DNA from: a bacterium
Lineage (GTDB): Bacteria; Armatimonadota; Fimbriimonadia; Fimbriimonadales; Fimbriimonadaceae
Length of the DNA stretch: 32,000 nucleotides
NCBI GenBank assembly: GCA_044508115.1
Contig: JBIQII010000001.1
Span: 1,547,799 to 1,579,798 of the forward strand
Direction: 5' to 3'
The notes beneath the pieces are model-generated. The model was not told the origin of the DNA, made no database searches, and saw only the letters and a list, made by a program, of their open reading frames with translations. Positions within the stretch are counted from its first letter, which is position 1; every line of letters begins with the position of its first letter. Both the position numbers and the translations under genes were made by a program. Below are positions 1-30,649 of the stretch, piece by piece.

Positions 1-2409
1 TTGTCCAAGTTCTACTGCGCAATACTGCTTATAGCTACTCGTAAGTTCTAGCGTGCTCATCCATCCGCCGGGAGAAGCTGCGGCCCGGCTTGGCAACACC
101 AAGCCCGGCCACTGATTCATCACTCGCTGAGCCGTATCACGCGTGACCGGCAGTCGGCCTCGCGACGAATTCAAGAACACCATGACTGCGCCTTCCGTAA
201 GCAACGAGCGAACGTAATACGCCTCGCCCGGTTGGAAACTAGTTGCCGCGACAAATGTGCCGTTTTCACGATTGATCGGATCGGGCACAAAGCGGAAGAA
301 GGTTTGCCCCACAATCGTTCCGGCCCCTTCCGCCCAAGTCGAAATCGCCTGGGTTGAGGTAGTCAGGAGCACATCGGTTGTTGAAGCGGCGCTGGTTCCC
401 GGCACCGTCACCAAATTCCAACCCGGCTTGAGACTCACGGCAATCGGAGTCTTATCGCTTGTGCGTCCGGAATAGTGGCGCGTTCCGGGTGCCGGCGGAC
501 GGATGAAGTAGCCCAATCCTTGTCGGAGCTCGCCTTCATCTGGGTAGTACTGGTACCGACCGGCAAACGAATCCCACCGGGCGACAAGCGTCTGGTCATC
601 AGGCAGTCCAAGCAGGTCCGCCGGATTCGGACGGTACGGATCAACCGCAACGCCGAGCGTCATCAATCGATCCAAAATCGGTTGACTGATCGTCAGATCG
701 GAATCCGGACTGCGGAGATCGACATTGAGATCGCCCCGTCCCTTGTTGAAAATCACGGTCTGAATATTGCCAACCCCGCTCTGCCGAATCGTGAGCGTAA
801 TCCGCTGGGGATTGCGGAAGTTAGGATCGGTGATCTGGGTGCCGAACGCTCCATTTATGATCGGCACCGTGGCGCTTCCGCCACTCCAGGCGATATCCAC
901 CGTCCGGTTGGCCGAAGGGATATCGTAGCCCACGACCGTTCCGTAAGCGTTGTTTGGAAACGGCTTTGCCCCAGTTGAATACGCCCCCGCTGGAAAGTAC
1001 AGCCGAACATTTTTGCCCTGAAATGGCAAATCAACGGCCGTGCGGTAGATCGGGTTCGATCCCCCTTGCGCGGGGAAATTCGGTGCCACCGCCCCGTAAC
1101 CACCCGCAATGGGAATCACGTCATCTTGCGCTGACGTAAAGAACCGCGTGAAGTCGTTACGCCAGTAAATGGGGTAGCTCGTTCCGGCAAGCAGAGTTTC
1201 ATCTCCGTTGGCACTGGTGTTAAACGCATTGAGGACAATTCCGAACACGCCGAAGTCGCTTGTGGCCGGGGTCGCGACAAACGGGAACGCTTCGGGCACC
1301 AACTTGAGACCGGCGTTGATCCGAGTATCGAGAATGAACTGACGCCTTGCCCAATCGGGAAAGCTGTACCCCTCGACCGTGGCCCCCGGCGATCCGGCCA
1401 GAAAATTGATGACCTGCTGGCCCAAAGCGACCAGCGATGCTTCATCCGAAAACGCCGCTGGGTTTACCGTGTATCGCTGATTGAATTCGCGGATGAATCC
1501 CGGATATTCGACCAGAACCTTAAGCCAGGCCGTTCCCGCCATTTTGTAGCGCAGCAGATAGATTCCGCCCGTGCTTCCACCTGCGGGAAGCGGATCGTTT
1601 AAAAGGTTATCGGCGATAAATCGCGGTGCCCCCAACCCCGGATAGTTGCTCCATACGTACACTTCGCTGGCGTCGTACAAACTTTCCAGCGTCTGTTCAA
1701 TCTCATCTGGCGTGCTGTTGGGAATTGTAGAAGGAACCCGCGCGACAGTCACGGTGGCGGCGCGGACCAACCCTTCATTATAGGCATCAAATGGGTATTG
1801 CTTATCGCTCAGGTAAGCGAGAAGCAAGGTGTGAACAAAGTTGATACTGGCGGCGACCGGACTGTTATAGATCGGAAAGCGGATTTCTGGACCACCTGGC
1901 GCATTAGGAATATAGATTCCGCCCGAAACGGCTTGCCGAGCGGGGATGGTGGCATCGTAATTGTAAACGTTGATCGTGTCGGATGACACCGGCAGACCAA
2001 ACACCGCATCCATCGCCGGACCCGCCGAGGTAAACGTGTTCTGTAGTTGCGTTCGATAAAACGACGGGAAAGCTAAGCTCCCGGTAGTCGGAAAGTTCAG
2101 TGTGAGTTCTGACCAGTCGCGCGGATCATTATTGCTTCGATTAATTGGGAGCGGAATTCCGTTTTTGGTGAGGATCACCCGCGTCGGAAGAGTAAATACG
2201 GTTCGGTCGCCGCTCAAGCGACGTCGCGGTTCGGTGAGGATGGCGAGCCGGGTGTTGTGAGCCTTAACGGTCTGTTCTACGATCGCGGCATATTCGGTGG
2301 CACCCCGCGATCCGACTTCGACAAAAAGGTCTCCGGCGGAGGCGAACTGCACCATTCCGGCGCACAAGAGGGCGGCCGAAACCGCCCTCAACACTGCAGA
2401 CTTAGTCAT
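1..2409 (-). CDS. Large secreted protein of unknown function; the 3' end lies beyond the window edge (803 codons visible)
   Basis: This ORF is absent from the ORF track because no stop codon falls inside the window. I checked every in-frame triplet of the minus-strand frame from ATG 2409 down to position 1 and found no stop. GAGG sits 5 nt upstream of the ATG, within 2410-2418. The N-terminus MTKSAVLRAVSAALLCAGMVQFASA looks like a Sec signal peptide. I recognised no catalytic motif such as HExxH or GxSxG. Confidence 0.75.
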   Translation of the reverse strand, partial: MTKSAVLRAVSAALLCAGMVQFASAGDLFVEVGSRGATEYAAIVEQTVKAHNTRLAILTEPRRRLSGDRTVFTLPTRVILTKNGIPLPINRSNNDPRDWSELTLNFPTTGSLAFPSFYRTQLQNTFTSAGPAMDAVFGLPVSSDTINVYNYDATIPARQAVSGGIYIPNAPGGPEIRFPIYNSPVAASINFVHTLLLAYLSDKQYPFDAYNEGLVRAATVTVARVPSTIPNSTPDEIEQTLESLYDASEVYVWSNYPGLGAPRFIADNLLNDPLPAGGSTGGIYLLRYKMAGTAWLKVLVEYPGFIREFNQRYTVNPAAFSDEASLVALGQQVINFLAGSPGATVEGYSFPDWARRQFILDTRINAGLKLVPEAFPFVATPATSDFGVFGIVLNAFNTSANGDETLLAGTSYPIYWRNDFTRFFTSAQDDVIPIAGGYGAVAPNFPAQGGSNPIYRTAVDLPFQGKNVRLYFPAGAYSTGAKPFPNNAYGTVVGYDIPSANRTVDIAWSGGSATVPIINGAFGTQITDPNFRNPQRITLTIRQSGVGNIQTVIFNKGRGDLNVDLRSPDSDLTISQPILDRLMTLGVAVDPYRPNPADLLGLPDDQTLVARWDSFAGRYQYYPDEGELRQGLGYFIRPPAPGTRHYSGRTSDKTPIAVSLKPGWNLVTVPGTSAASTTDVLLTTSTQAISTWAEGAGTIVGQTFFRFVPDPINRENGTFVAATSFQPGEAYYVRSLLTEGAVMVFLNSSRGRLPVTRDTAQRVMNQWPGLVLPSRAAASPGGWMSTLELTSSYKQYCAVELGQ

Positions 2410-2418
2410 AAATCCTCT

Positions 2419-3729
2419 TTAAGGAACGAACGTTCCGATTTCGCTAATCGTTCGACTGTCGAATCCGTTGGCCAATCCCAGAACCACATAGTAGTAGGTG
2501 CGACCGGACTGCAGAGGCGGACCACTGTAGGTCCACGAGAGTCCGGTGGTCGGATTGTTTGCATTCGAAGCGTACGCCTCGCTTGATGCTCCCGCATGAC
2601 CGCTGGGGTAAGTATCGAACACATAGACAATGAACTCTTCGGCGCCCGAACCAGACCGCCAGCGAATCGTGGGTCCGGCGGTAACGCCGTTGAGGTCAAG
2701 TCGGTTGAGCGTATCAACCACGATCCGGTTGCTCAGCTGACTCTCGGTGTTGCCGTATTCGGGATACAGCGTAGACACCGTGCTGATGGCATAGCTGTAA
2801 GTTGAAAGCGGGTTGATGCCCACATCCAGGTAGTAATTTGCGAGCGGATCGAACGAGAGGTCAATCGCCGAAACCGAACCACTGGCTCCGCCCCCCCGAT
2901 AGATGTTAAAGCCGAGCAGGTCGGGAAATTGCATCAGATCCCAGAAGAGTTCCGTTTCCACCGACATATCGGTGCGCAGCGAACGGCCCACCACCTGGGT
3001 GGTTTTGTGCCGTTTATCGTACAGCTTCTTGATAAATTCATACGCGGCCGCATCGTTCGATCGAGTCGGGGGCGGGGTAACCCAGGTGACAGCCCCGATA
3101 TTCGATGGCGGACTAAGCGCGGGGAGTCCGGGGTTCGAAAGAACAAAGTCAACCACCCGGGTCTGATTGCCGCTAATGACGATATCTTCCTGGTCGCTGC
3201 GGTATCCGCGGCCGCTTGCGCTCAGTCGAAACTGAACATTCGCCGGAACATCACGCAATGTATATCGACCCTCTTCGTCGGTGACCGCGCGCTGGCTCGA
3301 TCCGGCCCCCGAATAAGCAAAGACACTCGCGTTCATCAGGGTAAAGCCCTCGCGATCGCGCACAATTCCGGTCACGGTTCCCCGCTGGGAATTTGGGGCG
3401 ACCACGATGTTTACATTGTTTTGCTGCGTGTTCTCCAGGTTAAAAATGGTTGTCCGTCCAAAGTAGCGGACTCCATTGACAAATGCTTCCGCCGTGACTT
3501 CGACATCCCCGTTCGGAATGTTTTGCAAAGCGTAACTTCCGGTTGTCGTCGTGGTGGTGTTTTCGCCTTCACTACGGACCGATGCGCCGCGCATCGGGTT
3601 GAAGTCGATATCGACAACACTGCCCGTAATCGTCGAGGTGCGCGGTCGAACATCGCCGCCACATCCAACAAGAGCGGCCATCCCCAAGGCCGCGATCCCC
3701 CAACAGAAAACACGGTGCAACGATCTCAT
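2419..3729 (-). CDS. Lipoprotein with two carboxypeptidase-regulatory-like domains and FN3-like C-terminal domains
   Basis: The track ORF is 2419-3837. I place the start at ATG 3729 (MRSLHRVFCWGIAALGMAALVGC), which gives a signal peptide plus an L-V-G-C lipobox. The 36 Arg-rich codons upstream overlap the preceding gene. The CarboxypepD_reg-like segments are ITGSVVDIDFNPMRGASV and VTGIVRDREGFTLMNASV...DEEGRYTLRDVP. The FN3-like signatures are GFNIYRGG and GRTYYYVV. Confidence 0.8.
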   Translation of the reverse strand: MRSLHRVFCWGIAALGMAALVGCGGDVRPRTSTITGSVVDIDFNPMRGASVRSEGENTTTTTTGSYALQNIPNGDVEVTAEAFVNGVRYFGRTTIFNLENTQQNNVNIVVAPNSQRGTVTGIVRDREGFTLMNASVFAYSGAGSSQRAVTDEEGRYTLRDVPANVQFRLSASGRGYRSDQEDIVISGNQTRVVDFVLSNPGLPALSPPSNIGAVTWVTPPPTRSNDAAAYEFIKKLYDKRHKTTQVVGRSLRTDMSVETELFWDLMQFPDLLGFNIYRGGGASGSVSAIDLSFDPLANYYLDVGINPLSTYSYAISTVSTLYPEYGNTESQLSNRIVVDTLNRLDLNGVTAGPTIRWRSGSGAEEFIVYVFDTYPSGHAGASSEAYASNANNPTTGLSWTYSGPPLQSGRTYYYVVLGLANGFDSRTISEIGTFVP

Positions 3730-3760
3730 CTGATTTCTTAACGCCTCTCGCCGCCCGTTG

Positions 3761-6337
3761 TTACCGTCCAAAGTTGAACGCCAGCTCAAAGTCGAGCGTC
3801 CGCGCGCGGTACGCCCCCGATTGCTGGAACGGGTCACGGTTGGTAATGTCGCTCAAGTTGTACCGAATGTTGAGCGCAAGGTTCTGCCAAATCTGGTACT
3901 GATAAACCAACGAAAGATCCATGTGGTCTTGGGGAAGATAGCCCGTGATGTTGCCGTAGTTGGCATTGAACATGAGGTTCTGTCTCGAATCCAGACGGTA
4001 GTCGAGCGAAAGATTAAAGGCGAGATTGTCTTGCGCATACTGGCTTCCGCTGGAAAGCAGGAATGATCCTCCTGCCCGATATCCAAACTTGCCGAATTGA
4101 CCGTTGAGAAATCCGTGTAACGAAGTCACGTTCGACCGCACCGGCAGATTCGCAAAGCTCGTATTGCTAAAATCCAGATCGCCGCCCAAATAATGGCCCG
4201 ACCCGAGGTCGTAATCCAGGCCGAGGCTCAGACTTCGGGTCGTGGCATTAGAGCTCACACCGCCGCGCGACTGATAAAGCCCGGCATTGGCGCGCAATCC
4301 AATCCGAGGGGTGGGTTCGTATCGGACAAAGAGGCTGGTTTGACGACCGTTAGTCGCTCCCGCGGTGAAGTGCGAACTCGATCCAGCGGTGAAGCCGTTG
4401 CCGTCAAAGCCCGTCCCGTAACCCGAATTAATCCCCGGCACGTAGTTGACGTTGCCACTATCGCTTTCCGAATGGCTGAGTCGCAAAAAGAAGTTGTCCG
4501 TCGGGGTGTAGCGTGTCGAAAGTTGAACGTCGTGCCCCGTCCCGCTTTGAGTGGGGGTTTTAATCTGGTTAAGCCCCGCGCCCAGGGTGAACTGCCATGC
4601 CCGGCTGGGATCGTAGCTTGTGTTGAGCCTCGTGCTCAGTACGTTCGCCCGCTGATTCCCGCTCACGCTTTGGTGCTCTAAACTTAGACCCGTATTCAAG
4701 CGGCCAAACATCCGGTTTGTGCTGAGCGATGCCACATCGACCCGGGTATCTCCGGCTGCATTCGAAGTATGGGTGCGCGTCAATCCAAACTGGATCGGGA
4801 ACGACAACTTGGGATCACGGGTGAGCGCATAGGTAAAGAAAGATCGCGTGAACCGCGTACGATTCACCGTGGTGCCCGTGCCCGTGTTTGAAAAACTCAG
4901 GATGCTGGAGTTGAAATTCCCCGCCGTGATTTTGCCATCGCGTCCCGCCTTGAGCCCGATGGTGAAATCGTTCGCTCGTTCGTTGCGATTGAATCCAGCG
5001 GACTGAATGCTGACAAAACCTTGTGGGATGTCCCGAAAACCGGCCTGGAGATCCCACGGGCCAATTCCGTACCGAATGTTTGCCCCTCGCGCAGTGCCTG
5101 AGCTCGCCGAGGGTGTATTTCGCGATCGACCGGTGGCTTGGCTGAGCCGGATATCCCCGTTTTTTCCAATCGGAAGCACATAGTCGATTCCCACAACCTC
5201 CCGATCTCCGGGGACATTCTGCGAGGGTCGAGGCGTGTATAAAACGTCGATGGTCGATGTAGCGGGCATAAACCGATTGAAATAGAAAATGCTCGGATTC
5301 CCCGGATCAAAGTAATAGTCCACTCCTTCGGTTTGCAACACGCCATCAACGCGCACAACGATCGGTTGGCCCGGCATGGGTTGAAACTGCAAAAAGTAAG
5401 GCGTACTCGCGGGTCCAAATCCTTGGAACTTCTCGAGCCTTGTGGAAAGTTGGCTTCCCGCTCCGGTCACCTGCCTGGCTCCCACAATGCCGATGGTTCC
5501 CGCCGAGCCCATGTTGTACTGAAGGGATGCCCCTTCGATCCGCCCCGCCGAACCGGCAAAGTTGAACGATTCGTAAGTGGCCACAATCGTGCTGGTGGGC
5601 GGAATGATCTTGCTTTCCAAGGTGGTCCGGTTCAAGAATGTCACCGCCCCAAGATCGTAATCCATCGTGTAATCCTGCCCGAACACCTGCAGGACTCCAT
5701 CGACCTCGATATTTTCCGACCCTCGAATAATCTGATTGCTTTGCAGATAGTAGGGTCCCGCGGAGTTGTTGCCGGGAATCGAAACGGTGCGGGCCTCCCC
5801 TCGGGCTTCGGTGCGCAGCAAACCTACGCGGAGGGGGCCTTTGCGATATCCCATGCTAAGGCCGCTTACGTTATTGGTGACCTGAACGAATCGGTTGCTA
5901 CTGGGCAAAACTCCGCGGATATCGCCGTACTCGGCGGTGAAACCGTTCCGGTCAATCCACAACCGGTATCGCTGCGCTTGCGGATCGGAAAAGCGCGAAT
6001 CCTGAATATTTGCATCAAAATTGAGCAGGTCAAAGACATTGCGGCCTTCGAACCGCAGGTACCCAAGATCGGTGATCCGCCGATCGCCAAAGCCGCCATC
6101 GTTGGTGACGTTGTAGGCTTCGCGGTCGCCATCCACATCGCGAATGTGATAGGCAATCCGACGCTCACCAAAGGCCTTGATTCGGCTGACGACCTTATCT
6201 TTGGTCCATTCAATCACGCTGGATTGCGCCGGAACGATCGCCACCAACAGGCAAGTCGAGGCAACCGCCGCCGTCTTAAACGCCCATGCAGTCACGCAGG
6301 GCCTGAATATTCCCTTGGGCGGCTTCAACTTGTTCAT
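3761..6337 (-). CDS. Outer-membrane beta-barrel-like protein with an N-terminal region and two tandem beta-sandwich-like repeats
   Basis: The track ORF is 3761-6364, but its first codon is TTG. ATG 6337 (MNKLKPPKGIFRPCVTAWAFKTAAVASTCLLVAIVPAQS) or GTG 6295 gives a cleaner signal peptide. All three candidate starts overlap the csaB stop at 6276. The C-terminal ~470 aa consists of short alternating-polarity segments rich in G/S/T/N/Y/R, for example SLSLGLDYDLGSGHYLGGDLDF and LAFNLSLDYRLDSRQNLMFNANYG, and ends LDFELAFNFGR. An internal repeat lies at nt 5570-5758 and 5234-5404. Confidence 0.8.
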   Translation of the reverse strand: MNKLKPPKGIFRPCVTAWAFKTAAVASTCLLVAIVPAQSSVIEWTKDKVVSRIKAFGERRIAYHIRDVDGDREAYNVTNDGGFGDRRITDLGYLRFEGRNVFDLLNFDANIQDSRFSDPQAQRYRLWIDRNGFTAEYGDIRGVLPSSNRFVQVTNNVSGLSMGYRKGPLRVGLLRTEARGEARTVSIPGNNSAGPYYLQSNQIIRGSENIEVDGVLQVFGQDYTMDYDLGAVTFLNRTTLESKIIPPTSTIVATYESFNFAGSAGRIEGASLQYNMGSAGTIGIVGARQVTGAGSQLSTRLEKFQGFGPASTPYFLQFQPMPGQPIVVRVDGVLQTEGVDYYFDPGNPSIFYFNRFMPATSTIDVLYTPRPSQNVPGDREVVGIDYVLPIGKNGDIRLSQATGRSRNTPSASSGTARGANIRYGIGPWDLQAGFRDIPQGFVSIQSAGFNRNERANDFTIGLKAGRDGKITAGNFNSSILSFSNTGTGTTVNRTRFTRSFFTYALTRDPKLSFPIQFGLTRTHTSNAAGDTRVDVASLSTNRMFGRLNTGLSLEHQSVSGNQRANVLSTRLNTSYDPSRAWQFTLGAGLNQIKTPTQSGTGHDVQLSTRYTPTDNFFLRLSHSESDSGNVNYVPGINSGYGTGFDGNGFTAGSSSHFTAGATNGRQTSLFVRYEPTPRIGLRANAGLYQSRGGVSSNATTRSLSLGLDYDLGSGHYLGGDLDFSNTSFANLPVRSNVTSLHGFLNGQFGKFGYRAGGSFLLSSGSQYAQDNLAFNLSLDYRLDSRQNLMFNANYGNITGYLPQDHMDLSLVYQYQIWQNLALNIRYNLSDITNRDPFQQSGAYRARTLDFELAFNFGR

Positions 6338-7352
6338 CGCGTTTGCGTAAAATTTGAGCGGCAATCTTATCTCTATCTTTAATAAAGGATTGAAACTGAG
6401 CGAATAGACGGTCGGCGGTCGCTCCCTGAATATTAGGAGGGGTAGGGAGGCCCATCACGTTCGCGAAAGCCGTTACTTTTGGATCGTAGCTCACCATCAG
6501 GGACGGGATACCCACGGTCGAGGCAAGGATTCCCGCATGCAGACGCATCGCCACCACCGCTTCCATTCGCGCGATGCGCTGCTGAAGCTGGGTCGGAGTG
6601 GTGATCCCCTTAAGGTCAGGAACTTTCCCGCCATGCTTTTTAGCAATGGCTTCGATAATCGCCCGATCTTCCGTATCATCGAGTGCCATCATTACGGGTA
6701 CGTAACCGTTGGAACTGAGCATCCGGACAAAATCACTGAAGGTGTCGACCACACCGCGGGATTTATCTTTGCCGAACGGACGAGCGGAAATTCCGATCGT
6801 TTTCATGCCCGCCACCCCAAACGAAGAAGAATCTTCCCCCTGAGCCGGAGGAGGCGGAAGCAGGAACGCCGAATCTGCCGTGGTGCGTGGATTAGTCTTC
6901 ACGCCAAGCGAGCGGAGCGTGCTCACACTCATCGGATCGCGCACCGCCAGCATATCGACGGCATTAAAGGCGGATCGGGCCATCCGTTTACCAGTCCAGG
7001 TCGTGAGCGGGCCGATGCCTTGGCCGACCATGATTACCTTTTTGCCCGACTTTTTGGCTTGCTGAACCAACTTTGAATAGTAGATCACGCTGCGAACGCT
7101 CGTAACATCCTGAAAAATGCTACCTCCGGGAAAAACAAGCGCATCGCATTCGGCAATTGCATTCTTGAGCGCGCCAAAATCCGACTTGGGCACGCTTTGG
7201 ATGCCGAGTTGACGCATGAGCCGCTCGGGTGAGGAAGAGATCGCCCGGTACTGGTAATTCAGACCTTCGAGTCCAGAGACAAAGCCCTTCAGAACGGCAT
7301 CATCCCCCAAGTTGCCGGCACCAAAATAGCCGGCAAGCAAAAGTTTCGGCAT
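6276..7352 (-). CDS. csaB: Polysaccharide pyruvyl transferase, CsaB type
   Basis: This is a 358-aa protein. The N-terminus MPKLLLAGYFGAGNLGDDAVL matches the characteristic G-x-x-G-x-G-N-L-GD-[DE]-A start of CsaB-family pyruvyl transferases. The size and the later G-MRLHA segment (AVVAMRLHAGILA) also fit the family. Confidence 0.85.
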   Translation of the reverse strand: MPKLLLAGYFGAGNLGDDAVLKGFVSGLEGLNYQYRAISSSPERLMRQLGIQSVPKSDFGALKNAIAECDALVFPGGSIFQDVTSVRSVIYYSKLVQQAKKSGKKVIMVGQGIGPLTTWTGKRMARSAFNAVDMLAVRDPMSVSTLRSLGVKTNPRTTADSAFLLPPPPAQGEDSSSFGVAGMKTIGISARPFGKDKSRGVVDTFSDFVRMLSSNGYVPVMMALDDTEDRAIIEAIAKKHGGKVPDLKGITTPTQLQQRIARMEAVVAMRLHAGILASTVGIPSLMVSYDPKVTAFANVMGLPTPPNIQGATADRLFAQFQSFIKDRDKIAAQILRKRDEQVEAAQGNIQALRDCMGV

Positions 7353-7354
7353 GT

Positions 7355-9202
7355 TTAGTTGTCTTCCCCGGCGGAATTAAGCGGAAGAATACGTGATAAA
7401 ACCGCCCAACCCAAGAGCCCGATTATACACCCCAGTACGTGTCCGGTTACCACTCGGATCACCGTCAGATCGATCGGAGTGTGGAGGTGACAAAAGGTGT
7501 TCACCACACTCGTCTGACCGATCGCTCCTGCCGAAATCAGCGCCGCCGCAATTAACTGTGCCGTCGATCCGACCTGAGCACGTTTCCACCACAACAACCC
7601 GAAAATCAGGGCCGGGTGTCCGATCATAAACTCCTTGGTCCGGGGCCGGACGATGAGAAATCGATCCAGCAGGTTTCGTAGCTTGAGCTCCAATCCGCTC
7701 ACCCCCGCCGGATTATCGTTTCCGGTCCGGCTGGCCATAAAGGCCAGCGCGAACAACACAACCAGTGCGGTAATCAAACCGCGCCACATGATCGGACGCG
7801 CCAGAAGATCATGTACGGATACGATCCGCGAAATCACCACATAGGCCGCACCAAAAATCGGAAAGAATACGACCAACTTAACGCCTGTAAACTGGTCTAA
7901 ATGCAGCATGTACCCGATCCCTGTAAGCAGCCCGGCCACCTGCAATCCCGCCACCAGTGAAAACGCGGAGATTCCGAGATAAGAGAGAATTGGAGCTCGG
8001 TTTGAACGATCACCGAACCAAGCAAATCCAGCAATCGGAATCAAAATTGCCGCGAGCAGCGAGAGCGGCTCTCTCGCCGCCGGAAGATAGGCCGCCGCTC
8101 CGAGTAACCCAAGCACGCCACCCGCGATCATCCGCAACTGAGGCGTAAACCGAGCCCCCAGCAATGCCAGCAATCCGTACAACATGGCTGGAACCAAACT
8201 TATACCGAGTGCCGCTTTGAGAATCGGGTTCGAAGTTGGGTCTTCGAAGGGACGCGCAGGCTTGGCCGCCATGCCTTTCTTATCCAGCTCATCCCGAATT
8301 TTGTCAATCAAATCCGCATACTTGGTGAGGGGCTTATCTGAAGCGGTGGACGACGGGCGGACGAGCAGATATCGGATATTGCGCTCCCGAGCCGCCTTAA
8401 CATATCGTTCGACAATGGCCGTCGGCGACATTCGCACAAGTTCTGCCGCTTGCGCGGCGTGCAACCGAATCACGTTATGCTTAGCCTTTCCGGCCAGCTT
8501 TGCGTCACCAGATATCTTCGCAAATTCTGCCGAAACATAGATAATTCCCTCGCGCTCCAGCTTATCGGCGGTGAGTCCGATTAGCTCATCGTTACCCATA
8601 ACTTCGTCGCCAAGCGGAAGATAGGCCACGGCCCCTTGTCGGGAAATCCGGGAGATGGCGAAATCGAGGTACTCAGGAGTAGTGCCACTGGGATTCCCAA
8701 TTCGCGCTAAAGTCACTAGCCCTGCTTCGCGAGCGGCGCGGACTTCGAATTCGTTGAGCCCGAGTTGGATCGAGCGTAGCCGTTGGGGATCGCGGATGAC
8801 GAACTCTTCCCCTTCGCGGATCGATTGGCCAAATCGCGCCCGATAGCTAGCTTCGATGGCCCCAAGATCGGAATCTAGCCCGCTAAGACGGTAACGCCCG
8901 CCTGGCATCGGATCAAGCTCAATTAATCCGTTGGAAAGCAGCTCGCCCGCGGTGCGCTCGTTGCACGAGACCATTCCGACTCCGGCCTCCGCCAGCTTGC
9001 GATACCCCTCCCCCACTGAGAGCCCCTCGGCCCCCGCGAGATCGGCAGCCGCTTCCGCTTCGACAATAATCGTAACCGCTCGGTTCGATTGCTCCGCTTG
9101 GTAGCGCGAAGCGACGTTGATAATCGACAGGATCGCCGCCGCCACAAGCGATGCTCCCACCAGCCAGGGCGGATTAATCTTCGAACTCACTATCTTCCTC
9201 AA
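7355..9202 (-). CDS. Polytopic membrane protein, DUF5693-like (the family name is recalled from memory, not searched)
   Basis: This is a 615-aa protein. It has one N-terminal TM helix (PPWLVGASLVAAAILSIINV) and an extracytoplasmic domain of about 300 aa. The C-terminal half has many hydrophobic helices and contains VRPRTKEFMIGHPALIFG. It ends 2 nt upstream of the csaB start. From memory, DUF5693 proteins have this architecture and often sit next to csaB. Confidence 0.6.
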   Translation of the reverse strand: MRKIVSSKINPPWLVGASLVAAAILSIINVASRYQAEQSNRAVTIIVEAEAAADLAGAEGLSVGEGYRKLAEAGVGMVSCNERTAGELLSNGLIELDPMPGGRYRLSGLDSDLGAIEASYRARFGQSIREGEEFVIRDPQRLRSIQLGLNEFEVRAAREAGLVTLARIGNPSGTTPEYLDFAISRISRQGAVAYLPLGDEVMGNDELIGLTADKLEREGIIYVSAEFAKISGDAKLAGKAKHNVIRLHAAQAAELVRMSPTAIVERYVKAARERNIRYLLVRPSSTASDKPLTKYADLIDKIRDELDKKGMAAKPARPFEDPTSNPILKAALGISLVPAMLYGLLALLGARFTPQLRMIAGGVLGLLGAAAYLPAAREPLSLLAAILIPIAGFAWFGDRSNRAPILSYLGISAFSLVAGLQVAGLLTGIGYMLHLDQFTGVKLVVFFPIFGAAYVVISRIVSVHDLLARPIMWRGLITALVVLFALAFMASRTGNDNPAGVSGLELKLRNLLDRFLIVRPRTKEFMIGHPALIFGLLWWKRAQVGSTAQLIAAALISAGAIGQTSVVNTFCHLHTPIDLTVIRVVTGHVLGCIIGLLGWAVLSRILPLNSAGEDN

Positions 9203-9860
9203 ACCGTCGCTCGGCCAGAATCGAACGGCGACCTCCCAAAATCATCACCGTAATCATTCCCGCTAAAAAACCCCCGACATGCGCCCAATTCGCCACTCCT
9301 TGTTGTGGGAAAAACACCTGGAACCCAAACCAAAGCAGAAGTAGCACCCAGCTTGTGACCACAAATGGCCAAAAGAAAAACGGCGGAATCATCACCCGCA
9401 CTTGCGACCCGGGGAACAGCAAGAAGTATGCGCCCAGCACCCCCCCGATCGCGCCCGAAGCGCCAACGGTGGGGCTCTCAGAATTGGGATTCACAAAAAT
9501 ATGCGCGGCCGAAGCACACAACCCCCAAAACAGATAGTACAGCGCAAATCGAGGGCCGCGCAATGCTTCTTCAACCGCGGGTCCGAATACGGCGAGAAAC
9601 ACTACGTTTCCAAACAAATGCGCTAAGTTTCCGTGCAGAAACATGCTCGTAAAAATCTTCGCCGCTTCTAACGGATCGCCCTGGCCCGTAAAAACAAGCA
9701 AGACCTGGCGCGGCCGCATAGCGAGATCGGCAAACGCCATATTTGGACCGAAAAATCCAAAGTTTCGGTCCCAAAGGTAAATCGCCACGTTCAGCACCAC
9801 CAGGGTGTAAACCAGCACCGGTGTCTGTTTCCGCAAAAGATTATCGCGGAGGGGAATCAT
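9174..9860 (-). CDS. Rhomboid family intramembrane serine protease
   Basis: This is a 228-aa polytopic protein. It carries FLHGNLAHLFGNVVFL, the catalytic G-x-S-G motif (VGASGAIGGVLGAYF) and the catalytic His segment AHVGGFLAG. Its 3' end overlaps the next gene by 29 nt. Confidence 0.9.
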   Translation of the reverse strand: MIPLRDNLLRKQTPVLVYTLVVLNVAIYLWDRNFGFFGPNMAFADLAMRPRQVLLVFTGQGDPLEAAKIFTSMFLHGNLAHLFGNVVFLAVFGPAVEEALRGPRFALYYLFWGLCASAAHIFVNPNSESPTVGASGAIGGVLGAYFLLFPGSQVRVMIPPFFFWPFVVTSWVLLLLWFGFQVFFPQQGVANWAHVGGFLAGMITVMILGGRRSILAERRFEEDSEFED

Positions 9861-10105
9861 GGCTGGCCCATGTTACACGCTATGCGTCTGAAAATTGTGC
9901 CAACTGCCCGCACGGCGGTCTCGTAAAGGCCGAATTCGTTCCGGGTCTTATCGAATAGTCCAAGATCGGGTCCAAAGGGTACTATGCGACTTCGCCGTTA
10001 CTGAAGTTTTGATTTCGTTGCCGAGACTTCATTGATTGGCGATTCGTGATTTAGCCATCTTGGCGACCATTGGACCGGTCTTCCAATTTGGCGATTGAGT
10101 CGCAC

Positions 10106-10981
10106 ATGTTCAGTCCGCTTGCATTGGTTTTGGCGGTGGCTACGGTTGGCCCTGCCCCGGCCCCCCGCGTTCTTCCGCCCGCGCCGGCCTTCTCACGTAC
10201 AACTCGTCGGCCCGGAAACATATACGGATCGGTGCTTGTACTGATGTACCATCGCACCGGCCCGGACGAAAAGTACATGGTCCGATCCCACAAGAAGTTC
10301 CGCGCCGATCTTGAACGACTCCACCGACTGGGCTACCGACCCGTGACGCTTGCCGAATACTCCGAAAATCGAATGCCTCTGCCCCGAGGAGCATCGCCCG
10401 TGGTCATCACGTTCGACGACAGCCATCCCAGCCAATTTCGACTGCTGCCCGACGGGCAGATTGATCCTAATTCGATGGTCGGAATCTGGCGTTCTTTTGC
10501 CAAAAAGCATCCAGATTTCCCCGTCAAAGCGACATTCTTCGTGCTCCCCAACGGACCGTTCGGTCAGCCAAAATCGGCCGAGCGCAAGTTGGAGCTGCTC
10601 AAAGAGTGGGGTTGCGAAGTCGGAAGTCACACCATGCATCACGAAAACCTCGCCAAACTTACCGATGCGCAGGTCCGCAAAGAGCTTGGTGAATCGTATC
10701 AGTTCGTCCAAAGTTTAGGTTTTGAGCCGACCAGTCTAGCTCTGCCGTTCGGAATCCTCCCCCAAAATCGTGCGCTCACCGAACAGTTTACATTTTCCGG
10801 AAAAACCTACCGATATTGGAACATTTGCTTGGCCGGATCGTCGCCCGCCCCATCGCCGAACTCTGCTCGATTAAATCGTCTGCGTATTCCGCGCGTGCAA
10901 GGTTACGATGGTCTTTACGGAATACACTATTGGCTCAATCGGCATAAGAAGTACCCTTCGAACGTTTACGTCCAACCATGA
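10106..10981 (+). CDS. Polysaccharide deacetylase (NodB homology domain), exported
   Basis: NodB motifs are present: VVITFDDSHPSQF (the TFDD motif) and GSHTMHH (H-[ST]-x-x-H), plus VLMYHR. The track start is TTG 10070. I prefer ATG 10106 (MFSPLALVLAVATVGPAPAP, a hydrophobic leader). The stop overlaps the next start as ATGA at 10978-10981. Confidence 0.82.
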   Translation: MFSPLALVLAVATVGPAPAPRVLPPAPAFSRTTRRPGNIYGSVLVLMYHRTGPDEKYMVRSHKKFRADLERLHRLGYRPVTLAEYSENRMPLPRGASPVVITFDDSHPSQFRLLPDGQIDPNSMVGIWRSFAKKHPDFPVKATFFVLPNGPFGQPKSAERKLELLKEWGCEVGSHTMHHENLAKLTDAQVRKELGESYQFVQSLGFEPTSLALPFGILPQNRALTEQFTFSGKTYRYWNICLAGSSPAPSPNSARLNRLRIPRVQGYDGLYGIHYWLNRHKKYPSNVYVQP

Positions 10982-11664
10982 TTCACTCCGTTCCCGCAAG
11001 CAAACCGATCACGCTCAAAGATGTCAAAGCGAACCCTAAAGTAAATTCGCTTATCACCGGCGCCAACGAACTGCTTAACGGAATGGGGTTCACCGAGCAC
11101 GGGCATCGTCATGTGGGAATCGTGGCCGGAATAACCAAGCACATTATGGAACGGCTCGGCATGCCCGAGCGTGAAGTCGAACTCGCCCAGATCGCGGCCT
11201 ATTTGCACGATATCGGAAACGTCATCAACCGGGTCGACCACCCCATCAGCGGGGCTGGAATCGCATATCGGTTGCTCGACGAAATGGGCATGCCTACCGA
11301 TGAAATCTGCCCGATTCTGGGTGCAATCGGCAACCATGAAGAGTTACTCGGCACCCCCGTTAGCGTGATGTCAGCCGCCCTCATCGTGGCCGACAAGAGC
11401 GATGTTCATCGATCCCGGGTGCAAAATCCAATGATGGAAACATTCGATATCCACGACCGCGTGAACTATGCCGTGGAAAAATCGCGCGTGGAAATGGAGC
11501 GCGAAACCAAAACCATCAAGCTCATTCTTCAGCTTGATAGCAGCTTTGCCACGGTAATGGAGTACTTCGAAATCTTCCTCAACCGCATGGTAATGTGCCG
11601 ACGCGCAGCCGCACTTTTCGGCTATCGGTTCAGCCTCCAGGCAAACGGAACTTTGCTGGAGTAG
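10978..11664 (+). CDS. HD-domain metal-dependent phosphohydrolase
   Basis: This is a 228-aa protein. The HD-superfamily signature is H...HD: HGHRHVGIV followed by AAYLHDIGN. It is translationally coupled to the deacetylase through an ATGA overlap. Confidence 0.85.
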   Translation: MIHSVPASKPITLKDVKANPKVNSLITGANELLNGMGFTEHGHRHVGIVAGITKHIMERLGMPEREVELAQIAAYLHDIGNVINRVDHPISGAGIAYRLLDEMGMPTDEICPILGAIGNHEELLGTPVSVMSAALIVADKSDVHRSRVQNPMMETFDIHDRVNYAVEKSRVEMERETKTIKLILQLDSSFATVMEYFEIFLNRMVMCRRAAALFGYRFSLQANGTLLE

Positions 11665-20935: not shown

Positions 20936-22141
20936 TTGCGGAACTGGTACAAAACTCTTTTGTGGGCCGCCGCGGGCGCCATTGTCGCGGCGGGGGTTTA
21001 CCCCGCCCCCGCACGGCCAAACGTTCCACGTAACCCCACCTTTTCCGCCGATATCTATCCGATTTTCCGACAGAAGTGTTTGCCTTGCCACACGCCTAAT
21101 CGAGTTGGTCCGTTCCGTTTTGATGAGTACGATTCGGTCAAGCGTCACCTCCTTCTGATCGAATCGCAAGTGCTTAGCCGGAATATGCCCCCCTATCAGA
21201 TCACCTCCGACCTGGGATTAATCGGATGCGGTGAACCATTTACCGATGCGGAGATGCGACTGTTTCAGCACTGGGTATCCAATGGGGCACCTCAAGGATC
21301 GTCGATCCCTTCGCACGATCCGGCCCAACCGCCGGATTCCACCTTGAATATCGCGTTAGAAAATGCTCCACCCACCCGCGCGGAAGGTGCCCCTTACTGG
21401 ATGCTATACGAAGTTCCGGTACCCGAGTCAGCCGAAATCTACGGGTTCGATTTCTTGCCCGCCACGCCCGGACTCCTCCGGAGCGCAACGCTGGGAATCA
21501 TACGGAATACGCAACCCAATCCCCCGCGCGAGGTTGTGAGTCGGATCGGACTCCGAGGCAACAATATCCTCGGCGCGTGGTCGGACGGGATGCCCGCATT
21601 CCGACTTCCGCCGGATGCCAGCATTGACCTCCGCAAGGGCGATGTCATTCGAGTGCTTGCCTTATACCAGCCCACCGGGCGCCCCCTCGATTCCGGATTT
21701 ACCATCCGCCTACTCACCACCGATCAACCCCGTCCAAAAACTATGGATGTGATTAGCTTTGAAGATGATAAGTTTATCATTCCAGCGGGACACTCGCCAA
21801 CATTTACCCTCGGCACCACTCTTGCAGAATCTCGCCGAATCTACGCGATTCTTCCGGAAGCGCGGTTCTACTGCACTACTTTCGAAGCGACCGCGACCAC
21901 TCCTGCGGGCAAACAAACGCTTTTTGCCACAAATCGCTGGAGCCCTTATTGGATCGGCAACTTTGCCCTTCCCACCACGCCAGAATATTCCGCGGGCACC
22001 ACGCTTGCGTTTCGCTTTACTTATAACAATGATGAACGGTGCGCGATGAACCTCACCCGTCCGCCCAAAACGGTCCAGCCGGGCGAAACAATTGACGATG
22101 AAGCGTGCGCGGTACACGTCATCACCATCGTCGATCGCTAA
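20936..22141 (+). CDS. Membrane-anchored periplasmic CXXCH-motif protein, probably of the copper type II ascorbate-dependent monooxygenase (PHM/DBH)-like family
   Basis: The gene has a TTG start and an N-terminal anchor WYKTLLWAAAGAIVAAGV. The sequence DIYPIFRQKCLPCHTPNRVGPFRFDEYDSVKRHLLLIESQVLSRNMPPYQ contains CLPCH at nt 21077-21091. From memory, this pattern (I-x-P-I-x(4)-C-x-x-C-H...G-P-F-x-L...MPP[WY]) is the N-terminal module of bacterial redoxin/PHM-like proteins. The assignment of the remainder of the protein is an inference. Confidence 0.75.
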   Translation: MRNWYKTLLWAAAGAIVAAGVYPAPARPNVPRNPTFSADIYPIFRQKCLPCHTPNRVGPFRFDEYDSVKRHLLLIESQVLSRNMPPYQITSDLGLIGCGEPFTDAEMRLFQHWVSNGAPQGSSIPSHDPAQPPDSTLNIALENAPPTRAEGAPYWMLYEVPVPESAEIYGFDFLPATPGLLRSATLGIIRNTQPNPPREVVSRIGLRGNNILGAWSDGMPAFRLPPDASIDLRKGDVIRVLALYQPTGRPLDSGFTIRLLTTDQPRPKTMDVISFEDDKFIIPAGHSPTFTLGTTLAESRRIYAILPEARFYCTTFEATATTPAGKQTLFATNRWSPYWIGNFALPTTPEYSAGTTLAFRFTYNNDERCAMNLTRPPKTVQPGETIDDEACAVHVITIVDR

Positions 22142-22144
22142 CGC

Positions 22145-23767
22145 TTATCGTTCAATACGGAACTGAGCAAAATCGATATTCGCCGCTAACCGCGCCGATG
22201 TGCGGGTCAACGAATCGTACGTAAGTCGCACCTTCACCTGATTGGTTCCCGCTTGAACGTAATCCGCCGGATCACCGGTTGCTCGTACGATTACGTTGGC
22301 ATAGCTTTGGGAGGCCGTCGGTGAGCCTAGTAACTGCCAGGCCTGAGTTCGGAAATTATAAACTTCCAACCGTTTAAAGTACGCCTCACTCGTTTCCTTG
22401 CTGCGGAGTTCGAATTCAATCGATTGCGGATTGTCATCAAAAGCGTGAGTCATGAATTCCAGTTCAATCGGATACAAACTCGTTGACGCTGATCCCGGCA
22501 AAATCTCCCAGCCGTTACCATCCGCAGTGCCGATCAAATCGGGCGTTGATCCAGTAGCGGATTGACCCCGTGTCAGAGTGACCGCCGGTGTAGAGGAGCG
22601 CGTCACCGCTTTGGAAACATCTACCACAAACAATCCGCGATTGATATCGCTGATAATTACCACTCCGCTGGGGAAAAACGGATAACAGCTCCACGCCCCA
22701 TCGAAACCGCGGTTATCGTTGGCCGGGTACGTGTCGTAGAACCCGACGAGAAATACATTCGTCGGAGCATCGGAAACATCGAAAATACGAAGTCCGCTGC
22801 GATAGTTGGCTTGGAAGCTGAATCCATCGACCACGTACTGGTTATGGTCAATTGCCGGAAGTCCGGTGGAAAAGGTGCCGACAAAGTAAGCATTTTCCGG
22901 ATCTTCGACGTTGAACACCAGCGACCGAGTAGAAACAAAGAGTGAGTTTTCGTCAAGCTCGTCATCGACAAACAAATACTTTCGATCCGTGCTTAGCCAC
23001 GCCTGATGGCAGTAGCTCATGTTCGGATAAGTCACCCGTTTCACCAACTTAGGTGAGTTTTTGTCGGTCATATCGTAAATATCCACGCCGCGACCTTCGC
23101 TACAACCAAAGAACAGTTCTCGGCCCGCTAGATTTCCGGATTGCCAAGTCACCACTTGGGCATCGTGAATATAGTTGGTGGTCATCGAAGCTGCGCCAAC
23201 CTGAACCGGGTGGGCCGGATTAGTAAGATCGAAACACGTGGTGGTTCCGCTAGATTGATTTGAACCGACGGTGTAGAGGAATCCGTTCTCTTCATCCATC
23301 ACCAAGTTGTGCGATCGCCCCGGACTGTTGATGGTTCGGACAAGCACCACCTGGCCGGAATCAATCTGCCCCATATCGATCACTTGGATTCCAGTACCGC
23401 TCGCTTCGGTGACCACGTACGCGAATTGACCGTAGACCTTGATATCCGACCACGTGCTACTCGTATGGGGAATCGTGGTCAGGATCTGCGGCGCAGTCGG
23501 ATTGGTAATCTCCACGAATGCCGTCCGGTTGTTGAGGCCCATGATCGCGTATTCACGACCAGATGGCGAAACGTAACCCCAGCAATCGTTTCCGGCCGAA
23601 GCTCCGAAAGTCGCCAAGCTAATTCGGCTGAGTTCGACAACATTCTCACCGAATTGAGCCGATCCGATCGCGGCAAGGGCAAGCAGGGTCGTCGCGGCAA
23701 GGTTTCGAAAGAAAGGGGACATACCAGAGGTTCCTAGCCTTTTGATTATATGACGCGAACCTTTCAT
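22145..23767 (-). CDS. Choice-of-anchor B / LVIVD-repeat beta-propeller secreted protein
   Basis: The sequences NDCWGYVSPSGREYAIMG, AFVEITNP, FAYVVTEASGTGIQVIDM, GFLYTV, CFDLTNPAHP, GVDIYDMTDKNSP and HQAWLSTDRKYLFVDDELDE follow the repeat logic of choice-of-anchor B/LVIVD proteins. The alternative start ATG 23722 (MSPFFRNLAATTLLALAAIGSAQF) gives a clean signal peptide. Confidence 0.85.
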   Translation of the reverse strand: MKGSRHIIKRLGTSGMSPFFRNLAATTLLALAAIGSAQFGENVVELSRISLATFGASAGNDCWGYVSPSGREYAIMGLNNRTAFVEITNPTAPQILTTIPHTSSTWSDIKVYGQFAYVVTEASGTGIQVIDMGQIDSGQVVLVRTINSPGRSHNLVMDEENGFLYTVGSNQSSGTTTCFDLTNPAHPVQVGAASMTTNYIHDAQVVTWQSGNLAGRELFFGCSEGRGVDIYDMTDKNSPKLVKRVTYPNMSYCHQAWLSTDRKYLFVDDELDENSLFVSTRSLVFNVEDPENAYFVGTFSTGLPAIDHNQYVVDGFSFQANYRSGLRIFDVSDAPTNVFLVGFYDTYPANDNRGFDGAWSCYPFFPSGVVIISDINRGLFVVDVSKAVTRSSTPAVTLTRGQSATGSTPDLIGTADGNGWEILPGSASTSLYPIELEFMTHAFDDNPQSIEFELRSKETSEAYFKRLEVYNFRTQAWQLLGSPTASQSYANVIVRATGDPADYVQAGTNQVKVRLTYDSLTRTSARLAANIDFAQFRIER

Positions 23768-27071: not shown

Positions 27072-27863
27072 ATGCCCCCGATAGATCGTAGAAAAGCGCG
27101 GACTGGTATTCTCCCGTTTCGCCCCCACATGCTGAATTCATCCTCGGAACCAACGAGCTCCGGCGATCCCCCACAACGAAAGCCAGCTCGCAGTTTTGGG
27201 ACCGCCATTCGGGACATGTTCAGCTTGCGATACCACATCGCCCGGTTTCGCGAGGATTTGGCGGCCACTCGAGCCGCGTTGGAAAAGCGGCGCCGATTGG
27301 TAAGCGGCGAAGCTACAACCGAGGAGCTTCCCGAGATTTTTCGCGGCAAGCTGATGGGCGTCTTTCTAGCCACCGGATGGACGAATTTGGTGGGTCTTGC
27401 TCTGGGCGGAGTGGTGCAATATTCCACCGGGAGCCAGTGGCTTGGCCTCTTCTTAACTCCTGCAATCTGTTTTGTGGTGACGGCCATCGCGTTTCAGATT
27501 GCCTGGTGGTTCGATAATCGAAAACTGTATGCCCTCAGTGCATCTGATCCGGCCCACCGATTTTGGACGCTTCAAAAAGACATGGGACCGGTCCACCGAG
27601 CCGCGATTCCGGTTGCCGTGGGATTCTCGCTGGTGAACTTCATCATTATTTCTCCTTTGCTTGGGTTGATCACGCTGATCAATCCGGAATTGGGTCGCAA
27701 CACGCCCGCGGGTGCGCTCATCATGCTTGTGGAGTTCCTCTTCATTGGCAGCTCATTTGTAAGGCTTATGGGCGATTTCTTTGACAAATACAGCTTTAGC
27801 CTCGCCGCCAAGTACCGCGACACAATCTGCCAGGTCGTAGACTCTCCCCAGGCTCCGATCTAG
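27072..27863 (+). CDS. Hypothetical integral membrane protein (about 4 TM helices)
   Basis: The N-terminal third is soluble and charged (RYHIARFREDLAATRAALEKRRRL). Hydrophobic helices follow: MGVFLATGWTNLVGLALGGVV, LGLFLTPAICFVVTAIAFQIAWW, AAIPVAVGFSLVNFIIISPLLGLITLI and GALIMLVEFLFIGSSFV. ATG 27129 is an alternative start. I recognised no family. Confidence 0.68.
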   Translation: MPPIDRRKARTGILPFRPHMLNSSSEPTSSGDPPQRKPARSFGTAIRDMFSLRYHIARFREDLAATRAALEKRRRLVSGEATTEELPEIFRGKLMGVFLATGWTNLVGLALGGVVQYSTGSQWLGLFLTPAICFVVTAIAFQIAWWFDNRKLYALSASDPAHRFWTLQKDMGPVHRAAIPVAVGFSLVNFIIISPLLGLITLINPELGRNTPAGALIMLVEFLFIGSSFVRLMGDFFDKYSFSLAAKYRDTICQVVDSPQAPI

Positions 27864-29730: not shown

Positions 29731-29733
29731 AGT

Positions 29734-30591: not shown

Positions 30592-30649
30592 TGTACGCAA
30601 TTCACCTATAAACCCCCCGACTGACGCGCCTTGGTAGTATCTCGATACT

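Follow-up and report, generated by a model that had tools for sequence, protein, structure and literature searches.

A two-module envelope operon of Armatimonadota with a lineage-specific giant beta-barrel coupled to csaB

We describe an envelope gene cluster from a member of the Fimbriimonadaceae (Armatimonadota), located at the beginning of a 32,000 nt stretch of DNA (assembly GCA_044508115.1, contig JBIQII010000001.1, positions 1,547,799 to 1,579,798), in the following called the window. Six genes on the minus strand, between positions 1 and 9860, code for a rhomboid protease, a DUF5693 membrane protein, the polysaccharide pyruvyl transferase CsaB, a giant outer membrane (OM) beta-barrel, a lipoprotein and a large exported protein (Table 1). 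This block is the 5' part of a conserved Armatimonadota envelope operon of eight to nine genes. Module A consists of rhomboid, DUF5693, CsaB and the barrel, module B of lipoprotein 1, the large protein, a second lipoprotein and an inner-membrane-anchored fusion of LptC and LptA. An operon of eight or nine genes with this two-module architecture is firmly supported, as is the coupling of the lineage-specific giant barrel to csaB across the whole family. We regard the architecture together with the gene identities as well supported and very probably correct.

The initial annotation had read the block as a self-contained module of six genes. This number is an artefact, because the window edge cuts the operon. 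The barrel protein is identical in a second assembly, GCA_044506935.1, whose flanks (locus L001) show a same-strand cluster running past window position 1. There, the large protein is complete with 907 amino acids (aa). Its gene overlaps by 4 nt with that of lipoprotein 2, a 289 aa protein with CarboxypepD_reg domains, followed with a 23 nt overlap by the gene of a 471 aa protein with an N-terminal membrane anchor, the LptC-LptA fusion. Last comes a 293 aa protein, which was seen in close relatives only. The cluster thus comprises no fewer than eight genes on one strand, in this clade nine. An eight-gene co-linear form, in which the LptC/A gene is the last one, is found in two further loci (L091 and L092).

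Conservation of gene order defines the two modules. A profile search of 1.84 billion representative proteins yielded 212 barrel relatives at E<1e-30. The operon proteins were mapped by tblastn in 80 loci, which come from species-representative genomes and without exception have Armatimonadota-like content; for the upstream counts at least 4.5 kb of sequence upstream of the barrel was required (59 loci), for the downstream counts at least 3 kb downstream of it (66 loci). Rhomboid, DUF5693 and CsaB genes are located directly upstream of the barrel gene in 51 of 59 loci, and in one other locus only the rhomboid is missing. Downstream, the genes for the 907 aa protein, lipoprotein 2 and LptC/A follow on the same strand in 39 of 66 loci, seven of which lack lipoprotein 1. 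The arrangement of the modules can differ: module B lies upstream of A in 1 of the 66 loci (L034), the two are divergent in L075 and L090, and in L089 module B is on its own and divergent from fabZ-lpxA-lpxB, with the barrel elsewhere on the same contig. Judged by this gene order, we conclude that module B is a frequent but separable neighbour of A, linked to lipid A genes. The initial annotation had raised the question whether csaB and the three genes behind it stay together in relatives. For the barrel this holds, also in deep relatives of about 1100 aa, but not for the lipoprotein and the large protein, as the 39 of 66 loci show. Since these two belong to the separable module B, csaB plus the three genes do not form one evolutionary unit.

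Barrel relatives of 1000–1160 aa, with an identity of 25–30%, are still found in a rhomboid-DUF5693-CsaB-barrel cassette (L083, L085 and L088); module B is absent from L083 and L085. In two Bacillota metagenome-assembled genomes (L086 and L087), DUF5693 is followed by CsaB and WecG/TagA, with neither rhomboid nor barrel, and in L087 CsaB and WecG are fused in one protein of 611 aa. We conclude that DUF5693-CsaB represents a cross-phylum wall-polymer core, to which rhomboid and barrel are Armatimonadota-specific additions. The DUF5693-CsaB-WecG/TagA genes of both Bacillota loci are located downstream of secA-prfB-lmeA, a clue to a role of DUF5693 in wall-polymer synthesis.

Some of the loci show peculiarities of their own. 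In L088 (GCA_030447685.1, 5509-17938) the cassette is a variant with an M48 peptidase between rhomboid and DUF5693, and behind the 1060 aa barrel come a FlgD_ig protein of 1044 aa and one with CarboxypepD_reg, which may correspond to module B in a divergent form. In the complete genome of Armatimonadetes bacterium Uphvl-Ar1 (CP021423.1; L058, 10001-12509) the barrel can be read in three successive frames only (tblastn high-scoring segment pairs in frames 2, 1 and 3); the two frameshifts implied are either sequencing indels or the mark of a pseudogene. Furthermore, the barrel occurs under non-Armatimonadota names in L008, L025, L040, L059, P0019, P0135 and P0403 (Methyloversatilis discipulorum, Methanoregulaceae archaeon, Archangium gephyra, Synechococcus sp. 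UW140, Kamptonema/Geitlerinema), in L008 and L059 also with the upstream rhomboid-DUF5693-CsaB genes. These records are probably mis-binned or contaminated assemblies.

Within the window, the listing of open reading frames (ORFs) and their translation confirmed the six co-directional ORFs at the positions given initially. The tight junctions described for them are real and conserved, and the tight co-directional envelope cluster proposed on this basis is borne out by junctions and synteny. The DUF5693 gene starts with TTG at 9202, or at 9190 in the NCBI annotation; as read from the sequence, it overlaps the rhomboid gene by 17 or 29 nt. Between DUF5693 and CsaB lies a 2 nt gap (7353-7354). The csaB stop overlaps the start of the barrel gene, for which 6364, 6337 and 6295 are possible, the length of the protein varying with the start codon. 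Barrel and lipoprotein 1 genes are separated by 31 nt (3730-3760), before the ATG at 3729. Between lipoprotein 1 and the large protein there are 9 nt (2410-2418), AGAGGATTT, with GAGG inside, a TAA before and an ATG after. Because there are more than 100 full-length homologues of each and the gene order recurs in dozens of genomes, these are real genes and not chance ORFs. The names of the homologues point to Armatimonadota, close to Fimbriimonadaceae. Terminator- and promoter-like patterns within the block were not clearly above the shuffled expectation in a pattern scan, and no RNA element (Rfam) and no tRNAs were found. The divergent intergenic region in front of the rhomboid gene, which yielded neither a consensus promoter match nor an Rfam match, is presumed to be the promoter region of the operon. 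On its other side, genes for a polysaccharide deacetylase and an HD-domain protein (10070-11664, plus strand) run divergently from the operon; this neighbour is unconserved in the 80 related loci.

Table 1. Features of the envelope gene block and its upstream boundary (window coordinates).
Feature	Position	Strand	Remarks
Rhomboid intramembrane serine protease, 228 aa	9174..9860	-	First gene of module A; PF01694, E 2e-29
DUF5693 polytopic membrane protein, 611-615 aa	7355..9202	-	PF18949, E 5e-119
CsaB polysaccharide pyruvyl transferase, 358 aa	6276..7352	-	TIGR03609, 223.6 bits; PF04230, E 1e-38
Giant OM beta-barrel, lineage-specific family, 844-867 aa	3761..6364 or 3761..6337	-	AlphaFold2 model, homologues
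Lipoprotein 1, 436 aa	2419..3729	-	First gene of module B; lipobox LVGC; PF13620, E 4e-20
907 aa exported protein, N-terminal 803 codons only	1..2409	-	C-terminus beyond window edge; full length from L001
Divergent intergenic region, 209 bp	9861..10069		Between rhomboid gene and plus-strand polysaccharide deacetylase gene

The identities given to the first three products in the initial annotation were confirmed by hidden Markov models (HMMs; PF01694, PF18949 and TIGR03609). In the rhomboid translation the motifs GASGAIGG and AHVGGF and the histidines of transmembrane helices 2 and 6 are visible, so both the catalytic GxSG serine and the histidine of helix 6 are present. An assignment as rhombosortase of a GlyGly-CTERM system was rejected, with 33 bits against a cutoff of 84; the C-terminus of the 907 aa protein has no hydrophobic tail, which also counts against such a pairing. 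DUF5693 matches PF18949 over its full length (398.9 bits, model positions 2-605 of 609). From N- to C-terminus it consists of a transmembrane helix, an extracytoplasmic part of some 300 aa and a block of several transmembrane helices. It is paired with CsaB in Armatimonadota. In text searches of the literature, neither this cassette nor DUF5693 was found to be described. The CsaB score lies above the curated equivalog cutoff of 213.1 bits, the match covering residues 3-304 of 358.

The AlphaFold2 (AF2) model of the barrel, from 47 sequences, has a mean predicted local distance difference test value (pLDDT) of 81.6 and a predicted template modelling score (pTM) of 0.56. The fold is all-beta, some 35 strands following one another from residue 39 up to the C-terminus; only the signal-peptide helix precedes the first strand and there is no coiled-coil stalk. 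Of 226 homologues, 215 carry a C-terminal aromatic beta-signal, with an aromatic residue within the last four positions. The barrel is broken up by two small beta-domains, which occupy residues ~175-250 and ~285-360 of the 844 aa form. These inserts are duplicates of each other (34% identity over 64 aa, E 2e-8), and their region is the most conserved part of the protein, with a mean column identity of 74% versus 46% overall. A tryptophan just after the signal peptide, W30, is nearly invariant (in Fimbriimonadia, a single Trp at residues ~25-35). Distant relatives (P0314, P0321, P0325, P0316 and P0337) have N-terminal Pro/Ala-rich arms of 100-230 aa, which carry one to three (L/I)W(D/E)xL motifs of the LWDLL type. 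This N-terminal Trp/LWDLL-type motif may be a docking motif for a periplasmic partner.

Neither the barrel nor the large protein matched a Pfam or NCBIfam family at cutoff in the HMM scans. The initial annotation could not map the three products to any named secretion, usher, Sus-like or S-layer system; by HMM, Foldseek and hhalign comparisons, barrel, lipoprotein and large protein find no place in the LptD, BamA/TamA, SusC, usher and polysaccharide-porin families. Across the 47 barrel members, Pfam gave weak generic outer membrane protein (OMP) matches (Porin_4, OMP_b-brl, YfaZ) and none to SLH, LptD, BamA, usher or TonB-dependent receptor families. The HMMs Bac_surface_Ag/POTRA, TonB_dep_Rec/Plug, Usher, Secretin and Poly_export did not match the window barrel, and a single Secretin match with E 0.15 was the only one among the 47 members. 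PF03968 (OstA/LptD_N) matched 0 of these 47, and PF04453 (LptD) neither these nor the window barrel. Foldseek against the PDB returned only large barrels with low TM-scores, among them MtrB, SlpA, TonB-dependent receptors, LptD, SprA and ushers; the best was SlpA of D. radiodurans with 0.38, and LptD reached about 0.23. PDB sequence searches with the barrel profile, an insert sub-profile, the 907 aa protein, DUF5693 and lipoprotein 1 gave nothing beyond noise (a mannanase at E 0.3), and the profile retrieved no SprA chain. The SprA/Sov model TIGR04189 matched all 47 members at its positions 593-681, with a best E of 3.7e-13; this match is local, covering about 90 residues of a model of about 2300 aa, and with 24 bits against a cutoff of 200 it is below the family cutoff.

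For lipoprotein 1, the ATG at 3729 gives a canonical lipoprotein signal, MRSLHRVFCWGIAALGMAALVGC, with an LVGC lipobox; the start chosen by NCBI (422 aa, equal to window position 3687) loses most of the signal peptide. The GC-GG lipobox is kept in at least 30 of 34 homologues, and homologues of lipoprotein 2 keep it, too. The protein combines two transthyretin-like domains (CarboxypepD_reg) with a beta-rich, uncharacterised half at the C-terminus. Of the domains first proposed for it, CarboxypepD_reg was confirmed, while the FN3-like part found no HMM support. Diderm Terrabacteria have been described as having neither a Lol pathway nor OM lipoproteins (PMC11784454), and because the pathway is missing the lipoproteins of module B probably stay on the inner membrane.

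In the AF2 model of the 907 aa protein (pLDDT 86.6, pTM 0.86) the signal peptide is followed by an alpha/beta domain (residues 30-360), many beta-sandwich domains of the Ig-like type in an array and, behind a disordered linker, a C-terminal beta-sandwich. By Foldseek, its first domain resembles M1 aminopeptidase (probability 1.0) and ZmpB. It shares with the M1/gluzincin group the fold of the N-terminal domain and a His followed 19 residues later by a Glu (H193 and E212, both invariant in 49 members), the distance that separates the second His from the third zinc ligand. However, HExxH occurs in 0 of the 49 members and is replaced by (I/V)N(F/Y)(V/I)H193 in all of them, so that the first His and the catalytic Glu are missing; furthermore, the Ig-like array follows here. 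Given the M1 spacing HExxH-x18-E, the site is best read as that of a degenerate, M1-like gluzincin.

The 471 aa protein (L001, 17454-18869) passes the Pfam thresholds for LptC (33.1 bits versus 21) and for LptD_N (31.8 versus 20.4). Among 32 aligned homologues LptD_N is matched in 25 and LptC in 17, its profile finds LptA in the PDB at E ~1e-3, and the translation has a hydrophobic N-terminus. Based on both thresholds, the homologues and the PDB match, we consider it a fused LptC-LptA beta-jellyroll. With the Lpt bridge (LptC-LptA-LptDE) the cluster shares a membrane-anchored protein with LptC and LptA/LptD_N character, and it also has a large OM barrel and lipoproteins in the same cluster and, in one genome, fabZ-lpxA-lpxB as neighbours. 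In contrast to that bridge, LptC and LptA are fused, no lptB, lptF or lptG is adjacent, the barrel has neither the OstA N-domain nor LptD homology, and the lipoproteins are of a multi-domain transthyretin-like type instead of LptE-like and probably cannot reach the OM without Lol.

CsaB is linked with pyruvylated wall polymers that are read by SLH domains, and the initial annotation had seen no such motif in the three downstream products. HMM scans agree: SLH is absent from all window products, from 47 barrel homologues at E<=1 and from 9 distant relatives of 1000-1160 aa. What had appeared as a puzzle is explained by the relatives, which encode an SLH-OmpM elsewhere. Such a protein is listed on another contig of Chthonomonas sp. 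UBA2785 (the csaB contig of which is locus L037) and in Fimbriimonas ginsengisoli (bioRxiv 10.1101/2021.05.31.446380, supplementary table). The same study reports OmpM homologues in Armatimonadetes, with no LolA in its table (bioRxiv 10.1101/2021.05.31.446380), and SlpA/OmpM-like proteins in Armatimonadetes have also been described elsewhere (PMC9388160). With the reader of the CsaB product encoded at another place in the genomes of relatives, the missing SLH is no anomaly.

One of the closest comparisons is with the CsaB/SLH-OmpM tethering of diderm Terrabacteria (SlpA of Thermus/Deinococcus, OmpM of cyanobacteria and Negativicutes). Both have an equivalog-level CsaB and a large OM beta-barrel genetically tied to it, both belong to Terrabacteria, and the best TM-score is to SlpA. 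As in OmpM and SlpA there is a C-terminal OM barrel with a beta-signal. But the barrel described here has neither SLH nor coiled-coil stalk, and consists of ~35 strands with two internal inserts, and a separate canonical OmpM is present in relatives; rhomboid and DUF5693 as partners are outside the described system.

From these observations a tentative scheme can be drawn. DUF5693 and CsaB would make a pyruvylated secondary cell-wall polymer, the SLH reader of which would be the OmpM encoded elsewhere in the genome, and module B would be an LPS (lipopolysaccharide) or glycolipid-bridge module. On a route that carries glycoconjugates across the envelope, the barrel would be the end-station in the OM. 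The conserved Trp motif at its N-terminus may contact a periplasmic or inner-membrane partner, the two duplicated insert domains may gate or plug the very wide lumen, and the neighbouring LptC-A bridge would feed the barrel or cooperate with it. Our confidence in this role of the barrel as OM component of such a route is low, and we regard it as possible but doubtful; the two-module operon and this role, taken as one statement, come somewhat closer to an even chance without reaching it. A more specific version is unlikely: the barrel as an unrecognised class of OM glycolipid/glycopolymer translocon, in place of the LptD/E that surveys of diderm Terrabacteria did not find. Its built-in duplicated plug domains could then replace the lipoprotein plug, and it could be distantly related to the SprA giant-barrel lineage.

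Several points weigh against this scheme and the operon on which it is built. In 7 of 59 loci none of the three module A partners is found upstream of the barrel, and 26 of 66 loci have module A without module B nearby. We infer co-transcription from spacing and synteny alone. A barrel of ~35 strands has a pore much wider than is required by any known glycan exporter. DSSP counts 35 strands, an odd number, so that strand number and membrane side of the inserts are uncertain, with a weak lean in the model, from strand parity and loop lengths, towards the extracellular side. Homology to LptD was rejected (hhalign of the barrel against E. coli LptD, probability 0.2%), and so was an OstA-like N-terminus (hhalign against the operon's own LptC/A protein, probability 2%). 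Because of this lack of OstA-like similarity, direct docking of the barrel to the LptC/A bridge is unsupported.

Four other explanations of the barrel have to be weighed, given here in order of decreasing weight. It might tether the OM to the wall independently of SLH, or be a major structural OMP of the Omp-beta type; pyruvylated wall polymer or the OmpM stalk would be bound by the Trp motif at its N-terminus or by the proline-rich arm. The adjacency to csaB would then follow the same logic as in Bipolaricaulota, where csaB adjoins the OM barrel genes omp-alpha/omp-beta (bioRxiv 10.1101/2021.05.31.446380). Besides this precedent, the tight and ancient csaB-barrel linkage, the periplasmic Pro-rich arms with repeated LWDLL motifs in distant relatives and the top Foldseek rank of SlpA, an OM-peptidoglycan connector, favour a tether. 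However, a TM-score of 0.38 is low and typical of any large barrel, neither SLH nor another known wall-binding domain was found, and the ~10-15 residues before the first strand of Fimbriimonadia barrels are too short for reaching the wall. Moreover, a canonical OmpM is already there in relatives, and conservation is highest in the inserts within the barrel, not at the N-terminus. On balance we consider a tether improbable. It is unlikely, too, that the barrel is a functional replacement of LptD, receiving LPS through the LptC-LptA fusion, with the two inserts standing in for an LptE plug that cannot be delivered in Lol-less bacteria and the CsaB linkage being secondary. The invariable partners of the barrel are CsaB and DUF5693, not LptC/A; it has no OstA/LptD_N domain and no LptD homology, and ~35 strands compare with 26 in LptD. 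Points in favour are the LptC/A gene within the same operon in most genomes, the position of module B next to fabZ-lpxA-lpxB when apart from A, and published surveys: core LPS genes are present in Armatimonadetes (PMC5007114), LptD/E was not found in diderm Firmicutes (PMC5007114), and lptD/lptE were never found in atypical diderm genomes (PMC8871954).

Still less probably, the barrel serves as a general diffusion channel or is an abundant OMP, mechanistically unconnected with the genes around it; the cluster would then be an envelope supraoperon kept by inheritance, comparable to the OM gene cluster known from diderm Firmicutes (Negativicutes/Halanaerobiales). Both clusters are lineage-typical supraoperons that gather LPS transport, OM proteins and tethering, but the one described here is much smaller, contains four uncharacterised lineage-specific families and includes csaB and DUF5693. 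Diderm Terrabacteria do cluster unrelated OM genes (PMC5007114), which together with the weak Porin_4, OMP_b-brl and YfaZ matches and the seven loci with the barrel away from csaB is in line with such a channel; against it, the csaB-barrel junction is kept, often overlapping, down to relatives of 25-30% identity, and the inserts are far more conserved than the barrel wall, unlike porin loops. Finally, the barrel might be a miniature SprA-like translocon for folded cargo, e.g. the 907 aa Ig-array protein, with the lipoproteins as accessories. SprA/Sov, the 36-strand translocon of Bacteroidota's type IX secretion system (T9SS), is likewise a very large single-chain barrel, close in strand number to the ~35 predicted here, is among the Foldseek matches, and shares with all 47 members the local motif in the inserted beta-domain; a candidate cargo gene, whose product ends in a beta-sandwich after a disordered linker, lies two genes downstream. 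But that match is confined to its ~90 residues at a score far below the family cutoff, the barrel profile retrieves no SprA chain from PDB sequences, and ~850 aa here compare with ~2300-2400 aa in a different phylum. PorV, PorU, PorK-N, plug and other T9SS genes were absent from the 22 kb neighbourhoods examined, T9SS is regarded as Bacteroidota-specific (PMC7463736), and the barrel often occurs without the proposed cargo gene. This makes an SprA-like translocon very unlikely.

Elsewhere in the window, three co-directional genes on the minus strand (27860-30723) code for a GT28 glycosyltransferase similar to monogalactosyldiacylglycerol (MGDG) synthase, a CrtO-like glycosyl-carotenoid acyltransferase and a metallophosphoesterase, and may form a glycolipid or carotenoid-glycoside operon. 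Two plus-strand ORFs, 20936-22141 (401 aa) and 27072-27863 (263 aa), have no Pfam match, and the adjoining 540 aa product (22145-23767, minus strand) has a weak LVIVD-repeat match only.

Summarizing, the cluster is a variant of the envelope gene clusters of diderm Terrabacteria, with four uncharacterised protein families. Through it, DUF5693 with its partners CsaB and TagA is placed in a genomic context, and a bacterial rhomboid protease is given a set of partners. Diderm Terrabacteria assemble and retain an OM although they lack Lol, OM lipoproteins and, as published surveys have it, LptD/E; how they do so bears on the evolution of diderm and monoderm envelopes. For this question the cluster offers a phylum-wide candidate set, comprising a giant barrel tied to pyruvylation genes, a fused LptC-A bridge and three uncharacterised envelope proteins, and the ideas put forward here are testable in the cultured species Fimbriimonas ginsengisoli and Chthonomonas calidirosea.

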